Source: Octopus vulgaris (Eukaryota). From it: a stretch of 64,000 nt of DNA. The DNA is taken from NCBI GenBank assembly GCA_951406725.2, contig OX597815.1, positions 187,860,001-187,924,000 of the forward strand, given 5' to 3'. The notes under the pieces are model-generated. The model had not been told where the DNA came from and searched no databases. It was given only the letters and a program-made list of their open reading frames with translations. Shown here piece after piece: positions 15,428 through 19,907 of the stretch. Position 1 is the stretch's first letter. Each line of letters begins with the position of its first letter. A program made the translations under genes and the position numbers.

Positions 15428-17300
15428 TTAATATAATTCTTAGGCATAATAAGCATGACACCAGTGAATCACAGGTATAGTCCATCTGATGGATTTCTAC
15501 ACGGTTTCCATCTACTTGAATTCACACACATGGTTTGGGTTGAGGTAAAGATATGGTAAATGTACCTGCCCAAGGTACCATGAACTAAGATCAACCCTGG
15601 GGCCTTGTGGTTATAAAGTGAACTTATTAACCACTCAGCTGTTCTTGACCAAAGCCTAAAAACAATCTTACCTTTTATAAACGTTTGAGTTTATACACCT
15701 GGAATGAGTTTTACCTCATCACAATACTTGTGATGACATGTGGAACCCTTCTAAGGAATGGGGGATGATTGTACAAGGTTGTACAACCTCCTTGAAACAG
15801 CTTCCTTAAACTTCCATCTACCAAGTCCACTCATAGGGCTTTGGTCAGCCTGGGGCTATAGTAGAAGTCACTTGCCCAAGATGCCACGAATGAGACTGAA
15901 CCTGGAACTATGTGGTTGAGAAGCAAACTTTTTACCACACAGCCACACTTGTGCCAATAATTAAAAACATCTCAACTGCTTCTAAAAGTCTAATGAACTC
16001 TTAAAAAGTGTGGTGATGTGAGTTCACAAGAATCCTATACACCTGGAGAGTTCTAGAAGACCGAAACACACCCTCCCTACCACATCTCCATGAACTGCAT
16101 TCTGAAATTTTTATTCTAATTATATGAACTTTTGAGAGTTACATTTTTACCTGAACATATATTTTTGCATCATACGAAGAAAATGGAGAAAAGAACATTT
16201 CTTTTTGTGAAAAGCAAAACAAAACAAAACAAATTGAGATTTTTGATTTAAAATGCTGTGCTCTAGTTTATTTCATAAAGGTTTTATACTTAAAAATTTG
16301 TTGCAACTTCAGAGAAAGTATAGAATAAAAAATTTCCTTGAGAAAAAAAAAAGGGAAAATGCTATTTTGTTGCACAAGAAATTACCAAGAGTTGACTGAT
16401 AAATATCTGTTCAGGTATTTTTTTTCTTCTTTCTCCCATCTCAGAAAATGCATACGATGTATCAATACAAGAGAAACTGAGATGTCTAAAAGTAAAACTA
16501 ATAAAAACAAATATGTCCAGAATTTTCTTTAAAACCAAAAAAAAAAAGATATTCATTCACAAATTTATTCAATGATGTTTTTTTTTTTTTTCTTTTTTTC
16601 TTTTGAACTTGGGCATAAAGAATCCTGTGATTTATTTTCACAAATAAGTAATCACCAAAGTAATTCTTATGCGAAAATTCTTTTGCTTTAATCTTACTGA
16701 GAACTTATAGAAAATCCCTTTCTTTTGAAAACGGAGACAAAAGGATAATAATAAAAATAATAATAATAATAAGAGAATGTAAAAATGTAAATAATGAAAT
16801 CACAGTAAAATTATCAATCAACTCTACATGTTTTTATATGTATCAAGCAAAGAAAAAAAAGCAGAAGTATTTCTTGGCGAGTGGGGGAGGGGGAGACGAC
16901 AAAAATTAATTAGTAAATATTTACTTTGCGTTTACAAAAATGTTTCAGCGGAAGCTTGATTTATCCTCCTTTTGCTAACCTGTTAACCCTTTTTATTTTT
17001 ATGAATTATAAAATAGGTGCCGACATGGCTGTACGGTAAGGAGTTTGCTTTCAACCACATGGCTCTGAGTTCAGTCCCACTGTGACATCTTGGGCTGACC
17101 AAAGCCTTGTGTGTGGATTTTGGTTAACATACATACTTCTGTGTAATTATGCATCCACTCACCTCCCTGATCCAGGCCCTTTAGCCAGTTTCTCGTCATA
17201 AATTTGCTGCTAACTTAAACTCCTCACTCTCTTCCCCGAATTAGGGTCAGTAGAGTCATATGGCACAATGTACTTGTTTCTTTATATATATATATATATA

Positions 17301-18038
17301 TTTAACAATTAAGGATAACTTCTTAATAAGGAATCTTAACAAGAAATTATCAGGTAGTTAGCGTGAAAAAAATAATTTTTTTCCTTTTGAACATATTAAT
17401 TATATTTATATTGTATAGAGGGCATTATTACACATAAATGCCTCACACTAAGAGGGACAAAGTCATTACTACCAAAATTACACTAATCATACCTAATGCA
17501 GTTCTTGTCCCTCTTAGTGTGAGGCATTTATGTGTAATAATGCCCTCTATACAATATAAATATAATTAATATGTTCAAAAGGAAAAAAATTATTTTCGAA
17601 TTCTTTTCTCTTATGAGGTTTTTCACGCTAACTACCTGATAATTTCTTGTTAAGATTCCTTATTAAGAAGTTATCCTTAATTGTTAAATTTATTCTGAAA
17701 TACTTTTCTTACCTGACATGCAGTTCGAAAAAGCCCGCCATTTACCGAATATATGATTTATAAACATTCCATGTGCTTGGCCGGAGTGAATAGATGTCTG
17801 TTCGTCTTCGCTAGGTAAGGTTGGTGGTTTATTTATGATGTGTTCAGAATCAGTTCTGCTGATGATCATAGACGTAATTTTTTATACATTAAATGTGAAA
17901 TCACAGGTGATACAGAACTAAATTCATTTTTTAAATGTCTTGCTTTGAAGAACTGCATTAGGTATGATTAGTGTAATTTTGGTAGTAATGACTTTGTCCC
18001 TCTTAGTGTGAGGCATTTATGTGTAATAATGCCCTCTA

Positions 18039-18041
<3 letters not shown>
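17301..18041 (+). mobile_element. Penelope-like / retrozyme-like element: inverted partial copy plus 489-bp unit with 48-bp terminal redundancy and a hammerhead
   Basis: 17301-17506 is the reverse complement of 17948-17995 plus 17507-17688; 17505-17552 equals 17994-18041; (TA)n on both sides. Confidence 0.85.
17852..17919 (+). ncRNA. Type I hammerhead ribozyme, intact core
   Basis: AGTTCTG-CTGATGA-TCAT..ATGT-GAAA-TCACAGGTGA-TA-CAGAACT: 7-bp stem I, stem III ATCAC/GTGAT, AUA site (predicted cut after 17912). Confidence 0.85.
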
Positions 18042-18075
<34 letters not shown>

Positions 18076-18076
<1 letters not shown>

Positions 18077-18276
18077 TCTTTTACTTGTTTCAGTCATTTG
18101 ACTGTGGCCATGCTGGAGCACTGCCTTTAGTCGAGCAAATCGACCCCAGGACTTATTCTTTGTAAGCCTAGTGCTTATTCTATTGGTCTCTTTTGCCGAA
18201 CCCCTAAGTTATAGGGAGGGATGTAAACACACCAGCATCGGTTGTCAAGCGATGTTGGGGGGACAAACACATGCAA

Positions 18277-19806: not shown

Positions 19807-19907
19807 GGCACAGGTATCACAACTACAATTTCCATTTGATATTTATTTTGAGTACATCAACATCAAAATAAATATCAAATGGAAATTGTAGTTGTGATAC
19901 CTGTGCC
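19807..19907. repeat. Perfect 45-bp inverted repeat with 11-nt loop at the 5' end of a family B insertion
   Basis: GGCACAGGTATCACAACTACAATTTCCATTTGATATTTATTTTGA and its exact reverse complement. Confidence 0.95.

Follow-up and report, generated by a model that had tools for sequence, protein, structure and literature searches.

The window analysed here, that is the whole 64,000-nt stretch of Octopus vulgaris DNA (GCA_951406725.2, contig OX597815.1, positions 187,860,001 to 187,924,000), harbours a 742-bp element made of two arms inserted back to back, flanked by (TA)n at both ends and devoid of coding capacity and LTRs. Its constituents are the following, in positions of the window:

17283-17301, no strand: left (TA)n target tract, read from the sequence; (TA)n abuts nearly all ends in the family
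17300-17506, minus strand: inverted arm, with its 3' end at site B (equivalent to 17689) and its 5' end equivalent to 17948, lacking 24 nt (17597-17620)
17505-18041, plus strand: main arm of 1.1 units, with its 3' end at site A (18041, equivalent to 17552)
17507-17995, plus strand: one 489-nt period, older subfamily A, non-coding
17515-17552, plus strand: hairpin A, just 5' of site A, with a second copy at 18004-18041 (fold z -1.64)
17553-17689, plus strand: 137-nt 'tail' between sites A and B, present on one arm only of two-armed insertions
17638-17675, plus strand: hairpin B, just 5' of site B (fold z -3.03)
17788-17813, plus strand: stretch where a Tx1-like LINE lands in other copies, from LINE positions in other loci; possible candidate transcription start
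17852-17919, plus strand: type I hammerhead with a predicted cut at 17912/17913 after AUA, from the sequence and family comparison
18042-18075, no strand: right (TA)n target tract, read from the sequence

The two arms share an overlap of 2 nt (17505-17506). Once reverse-complemented, the inverted arm runs through 17948-17995 directly into 17507-17596 and, past the gap, resumes up to 17689; the 24-nt deletion lies at a T-run microhomology and is private to the window copy among the fetched loci. A sequence-only reading made beforehand had described a 489-bp period, which the sequence bears out, as well as a position within a (TA)n tract and the lack of any ORF, in agreement with the two flanking tracts and with a six-frame scan of the doubled unit, where the longest stop-free stretch reaches 63 codons. 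The inverted copy passing from unit end to unit start, also reported there, is indeed present but with the deletion left unmentioned, and the 48-bp redundancy is exact in length but extends from 17505 rather than 17507 (17505-17552 being repeated at 17994-18041). As 5' ends in the family occur all round the unit, 17507 has no standing as a unit start and is simply where the window copy stops; the notion of a terminal redundancy with defined ends has likewise to be given up for a permutable tandem, with variable 5' ends and 3' ends fixed at two sites. Compared to the young 480-nt unit, the 17507-17995 period differs by 24 substitutions plus gaps.

Beyond the window, the unit of about 480 nt constitutes a dispersed non-coding family residing inside (TA)n. 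Searching the octopus's own genome (2.8 Gb) with the unit returned 182 matches from 40 of 1703 candidates, and exact matches amount to 340 for the family-A ribozyme core and 711 for a tail 25-mer common to families A and B. Copies lie within (TA)n on many chromosomes and contain between 0.3 and 7.5 units arranged head to tail, the family-A unit occupying less than 0.04% of the genome, and young units differ by a mean of 1.8 positions within arrays vs. 7.7 between arrays. While the window copy has a single hammerhead, the array at L031, with seven full units, provides the family with consecutive ones. A BLAST search for tandem copies without an adjacent RT ORF, suggested along with the sequence-only reading, did recover such copies, namely arrays whose units, up to 7.5 in number, are not separated by any ORF. 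The sister family B (loci L098-L127 and most of L192-L251) has a period of 497-502 nt, is older and 66% identical to A, and exhibits the same two ends and the same pairing rule as set out below.

The intact type I hammerhead layout recognised early on is present in the sequence, on the plus strand, as follows:

17852-17858/17913-17919: stem I, from the sequence layout
17859-17865: CUGAUGA core, from the sequence layout
17866-17869/17893-17896: stem II, with a U.U pair at its base
17897-17900: GAAA core, from the sequence layout
17900-17904/17907-17911: stem III, with the predicted cut after AUA at 17912

Rfam reports no hammerhead at gathering score across the window, nor at E<=10 across 17250-18100, and the matches it gives by E-value were rejected as hairpin artefacts of inverted arms. 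Because the fold of the window hammerhead is no better than that of shuffled sequences (z -0.62), the support for a ribozyme is comparative. Among 125 family-A hammerheads, the common variants differ in the core solely at the free position N7 (G, C or U), and the 10-nt insertion in loop II of the window copy is common to L002 and L047. In a nine-sequence alignment of families A and B, 5 of the 14 pairs change on both sides and 95% of cells pair (19-49% in slid controls), a covariation that reflects one divergence between two related groups, counted several times, rather than nine independent events. The family hammerhead is conserved and covarying, and self-cleavage can be predicted. The U.U at the base of stem II goes with weak cleavage in axolotl (PMC7229834); family B has a canonical G-C there, and its cut-site base is mostly C. 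Within a 71-nt stretch that contains the 5' ends of 28 family-B arms, 4 of these ends coincide with the cut site (p 0.008), which hints at cleavage in vivo. A comparable pile-up in family A was rejected, 4/114 5' ends lying within 7 nt of the cut vs. 3.3 expected.

The most distinctive trait of the family is the way its copies end. They terminate at two fixed 3' sites 137 nt apart, A (17552/18041) and B (17689). The family-A sample of 107 loci, less 34 duplicates, leaves 73 unique insertions, of which 32 are single-armed (18 ending at B, 12 at A, 2 elsewhere) and 41 two-armed; by script, 39 of the latter are A+B and 2 odd, one of which (L043) is interrupted by an inserted LINE, with A and B as its outer ends, and is hence A+B as well. 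If ends were independent, 39/39 A+B would have a p of about 4e-13. Along two chromosomes, 60 loci from the exact-pattern list gave by script 26 A+B, 1 B+B and 6 with one end unclassified, and 30 family-B loci gave 11 A+B, 1 A+A and 2 unclassified. Piece lists were re-read by eye for L115 (A+A by script), L229 (B+B by script), L238 and L243, all of which have extra inner pieces and outer ends B and A, bringing A+B to 29/33 for the pattern-list loci and 12/14 for family B, with the remainder unclassifiable. Altogether, the pooled back-to-back insertions comprise 81/88 A+B, 0 A-A, 0 B-B and 7 unclassifiable, in samples two of which required the tail sequence, so that A+A was under-sampled and B+B was not.

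Besides, the arms stop within 3 nt of an equal template position in 9/39 cases (permutation mean 0.96, p<1e-4), and they are not nested in 13/39, the window copy included. Locus-private variants common to both arms were found at 6 loci, for which gene conversion between inverted arms could be an alternative source; most private variants are arm-specific. Together with a (TA)n or AT-rich target, 5' truncation, an inverted copy and a tail at one end only, the family carries the insertion signature of Penelope-like elements (PLEs).

PLEs do reside in this genome. A young autonomous family, N1 (loci L078-L094 and L258-L287), encodes an extra upstream ORF1 of 466 aa and an ORF2 of 781 aa in which a Cys linker connects RVT_1 and GIY-YIG, and would be a Neptune-type PLE as judged by domain layout alone, RT, Cys-rich linker and GIY-YIG being the Neptune/Nematis arrangement (PMC8557442). 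Copies of N1 are bounded by (TA)n and use two 3' ends separated by 38 nt; those that are two-armed with both ends in view combine a long and a short end in 4/4 cases, and one N2 copy fits the same rule. Read by eye, N1 also contains a minimal hammerhead-like motif with U3-A8, and its full-length 5' ends cluster in the upstream 3' UTR. Several further PLE families occur in the genome besides N1.

The unit itself has no RT plus GIY-YIG ORF, and no significant DNA similarity was detected between it and PLE bodies in 50 GIY-YIG loci, following the scoring of 150 of the 6136 GIY-YIG candidates in the genome; because the two lack significant common DNA, the class of the partner is deduced from the insertion signature. 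A terminal motif common to the unit and Neptune ends was considered and rejected, the resemblance of the N1 long end to site B having a shuffle p of 0.38-0.41. No autonomous parent was found in the GIY-YIG loci, the family-B loci or the 60 loci on two chromosomes. Whether all other copies are attached to RT/GIY-YIG ORFs, which would have contradicted the sequence-only reading, was checked in 163 family loci (by tblastn for 90 of them, by blastn with seven PLE bodies for 47 of the 73 family-A insertions, and from flanks and piece maps for the others), and none has the unit bounding such an ORF in a pLTR arrangement. Two loci are ambiguous. At L213, a family-B copy is joined on the same strand to an old PLE 3' UTR fragment with no TA spacer; at L038/L188, a retrozyme array stands tail to tail with a truncated N2 copy, both without 3' ends, through either a deletion or a chimera. 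L248, L195 and L210 turned out to be separate insertions beside PLEs.

From these data, the window element is probably a hammerhead tandem-repeat retrozyme served by the RT-endonuclease of what is likely a Neptune-type PLE, which likely nicks both (TA)n strands and, starting at two fixed points, makes two copies of a single RNA. Arrays would give rise to multimeric RNA, often left uncut. We infer that hairpins A and B are the recognition or start elements of the RT; they would be bound by an RT-endonuclease dimer whose two subunits prime on opposite strands, one using A and the other B, and a single-armed copy would result when only one of the two priming events is completed. The two cDNAs would then be joined head to head via 0-10 nt of microhomology, often at an equal template position, as would happen if the trailing RT moved over to the cDNA that it is displacing, or if both ran up to a single RNA end. 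Arrays may be regenerated through ribozyme cleavage and circles, neither of which would be required for the window copy. In L1 twin priming, a head-to-head 5' inversion likewise arises via priming on both target strands, the second priming taking place at a variable internal RNA site; in the octopus unit, by contrast, both sites are fixed.

The nature of the template calls for a closer look, as the sequence-only reading had taken the passage from unit end to unit start as a sign of a circle. With arrays of up to 7.5 units in the genome, this passage shows a tandem template alone. The idea of a non-autonomous retrozyme mobilised by a Penelope RT finds support in a hammerhead tandem family with PLE insertion marks; the argument for a circle from read-through is not supported. 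In 78/109 canonical arms the cut site is crossed one or more times, hence a template that was uncut or re-ligated. A main template consisting of a 480-489-nt monomer circle, formed by hammerhead cleavage and ligation and around which the RT would roll to generate arrays, accounts for these crossings, for the near-homogeneity of many arrays (1.8 differences within vs. 7.7 between), for the intact hammerhead core of mobile lineages and for the family-B arms stopping at the cut site, and circles are established in coral, mussel and axolotl (PMC7229834). It does not predict, though, that at L005 and L148 a private variant is found in the far unit and in the other arm, yet not in the near unit, nor that variants at L031, L032, L033, L036 and L037 are common to some units only, both of which indicate that those copies at least derive from multimeric templates whose units could be told apart. 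The absence of a 5'-end excess at the cut in family A and its U.U pair, tied to weak cleavage in axolotl (PMC7229834), also speak against it, and we regard the monomer circle as unlikely to be the main template. Homogeneous arrays fit both models, and multimeric circles remain compatible with the family-A variant data. A circle is in any case not needed to read through the cut site, given such arrays, autonomous PLE copies in the genome that also cross their own hammerhead, and the use of uncut RNA by PAc, the Poseidon element of Anolis (PMC11167929). A divergent RT-PCR product would also be expected from the read-through RNA of tandem arrays; contigs of four runs (presumed RNA, without DNA control) cover 18-26 of the 30 bins of a young array, where a circle junction would look the same as a tandem junction, and the coverage favours neither the presence nor the absence of expression or circles.

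The dual-priming route has to be weighed against three further explanations. Should the inverted arm derive from a self-priming fold-back of one cDNA, as proposed for Penelope (PMC3846280), rather than from a second priming, near-perfect palindromic junctions would be expected, and 9/39 are of this kind, several at local palindromes. Nonetheless, the 13/39 cases of arms that are not nested, among which the window copy, exclude the folding back of one arm from the other there, and single-armed copies ending at A as well as B make of site A a start site in its own right, such that this origin appears quite improbable. Alternatively, the unit could be the pLTR of an autonomous Penelope element, with solo and tandem copies as 5'-truncated leftovers; insertion marks like those of PLEs, the share of GIY-YIG candidates scored (150/6136) and the junction without TA spacer at L213 lean that way, against which stand the head-to-tail arrays without intervening ORF, the 0/163 loci where the unit flanks a PLE ORF, and the fact that ORFs found inside units belong only to an APE-type LINE. 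Such a derivation is thus considered very improbable. About as little credence is given to monomers being retrotransposed and arrays growing later by unequal exchange at the DNA level, like minisatellites, a scenario from bioRxiv 10.64898/2026.07.22.740005; the periodic variant patterns within L031, L033 and L037 are in keeping with it, but arrays are young and dispersed, have one end exactly at A or B and the other at a random 5' position, and are also found within two-armed structures, which would follow from their insertion as finished arrays. Dual priming from A and B on a multimeric RNA is consequently retained as the preferred reading.

Regarding nucleotide changes in the copies, A-to-I editing of the template was rejected, private A>G amounting to 9 vs. 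21 T>C. In run X11, a contig (depth 2.8, without DNA control) on L031:1622-1787 displays a T>C cluster, a pattern expected from A-to-I hyper-editing if antisense or double-stranded RNA were the substrate. Private substitutions on the sense strand include 32 G>A vs. 15 C>T (p 0.056), and young family-A copies 18 G>A vs. 5 C>T (p 0.02, uncorrected), perhaps through deamination of single-stranded cDNA.

Like the unit, the animal non-LTR retrozymes (PMC7229834; bioRxiv 10.64898/2026.07.22.740005) are non-coding tandem repeats with a type I hammerhead each, scattered in monomeric and multimeric form alongside autonomous PLEs, by which both papers proposed that they are mobilised. The octopus unit measures 480-500 nt vs. 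170-400 (PMC7229834) and 51-972 (bioRxiv 10.64898/2026.07.22.740005). Circles were demonstrated in coral, mussel and axolotl (PMC7229834), whereas for the octopus family both circles and cleavage are putative. Kinship with pLTRs was found for 24 of 57 Xenopus families (bioRxiv 10.64898/2026.07.22.740005), in contrast to the octopus unit, without pLTR homology in the 50 GIY-YIG loci (150/6136 candidates scored). Fixed double 3' ends and two-armed insertions are not described for animal retrozymes in the parts of these papers compared; the main text of PMC7229834 mentions neither octopus nor cephalopod, its supplements possibly listing cephalopod repeats, and bioRxiv 10.64898/2026.07.22.740005 sampled vertebrates, three insects and one anthozoan. 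The words 'ribozyme' and 'retrozyme' are absent from the main text of the O. vulgaris repeat paper, and a literature search without most subscription papers and Repbase returned no description of this family or of a strict A+B pairing rule. That the element represents an animal non-LTR retrozyme family not previously described in the literature found is well supported.

With respect to PLEs themselves, EN+ elements of the Neptune/Naiad type (PMC8557442; PMC3846280; PMC4209133) have an ORF and a minimal hammerhead, unlike the unit with its full hammerhead and no ORF, and their tail is 30-40 bp in those papers vs. 137 nt here; the one-ended tail they exhibit is quantified here as a rule, with 81/81 classifiable insertions. 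A parallel to the proposed route comes from PAc (PMC11167929), in which the tail is delimited by two internal start sites of the RT. PAc has an AT-rich target, cuts and extends both strands, uses uncut RNA as main template and is predicted to form a dimer. Its start sites lie within the ORF and show no strand difference in vitro (PMC11167929), whereas the non-autonomous unit pairs its sites strictly; on account of this lack of strand difference in PAc, a strict pairing per target molecule is put forward here as a deduction.

Somewhat less than evenly probable, and advanced tentatively, is the broader proposal that the family constitutes a natural record of Penelope integration, with one RT-endonuclease dimer, a single retrozyme RNA, two hairpins, opposite strands and a template switch onto displaced cDNA, the retrozyme serving moreover as landing site and borrowed promoter for Tx1. 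If true, this would account at a stroke for the tail at one end only, for the inverted pLTR and for the palindromic junction, and Neptune, retrozyme and Tx1 would form a three-level chain. For the movement of animal retrozymes, PLE mobilisation and circular templates are proposals. The octopus family provides the PLE signature in countable numbers and, with the strict A+B rule, a sharp prediction for an in vitro PLE assay, as well as a caution, namely that tandem continuity is not evidence for circularity.

As for the third level of this putative chain, family-A units contain a 5.3-kb L1/Tx1-like LINE (ORF2 of 1133 aa with APE, RT and zf-RVT), Tx1-like by its domain layout alone, and a 1.7-kb ORF1-only relative thereof. 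At L288, L289, L290/L323, L322 and L327, the LINEs are in sense orientation within unit positions 282-307, and duplications of 4, 15 and 19 nt accompany them. Conversely, LINE copies at unrelated sites (L323, L325, L326) have a 5' head of 19-23 nt from unit positions 280-307, which suggests a transcription start inside the retrozyme in this stretch; the 5' ends of family-A arms form no clear pile-up there. A role of the LINE as retrozyme mobiliser was rejected, as retrozyme ends are without the LINE 3' tail and most LINE 3' ends abut other DNA, and a strictly retrozyme-specific Tx1 is not supported, with 4/30 and 2/30 top LINE 3'-end loci abutting family A. Target preference is known in the Tx1 clade, other transposons included (PMC4494074), and the literature search, again without most subscription papers and Repbase, held no description of Tx1 in retrozymes. 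Elsewhere in the window, a perfect 45-nt inverted repeat with an 11-nt spacer is found at 19807-19907, beside a 62-nt tandem repeat.
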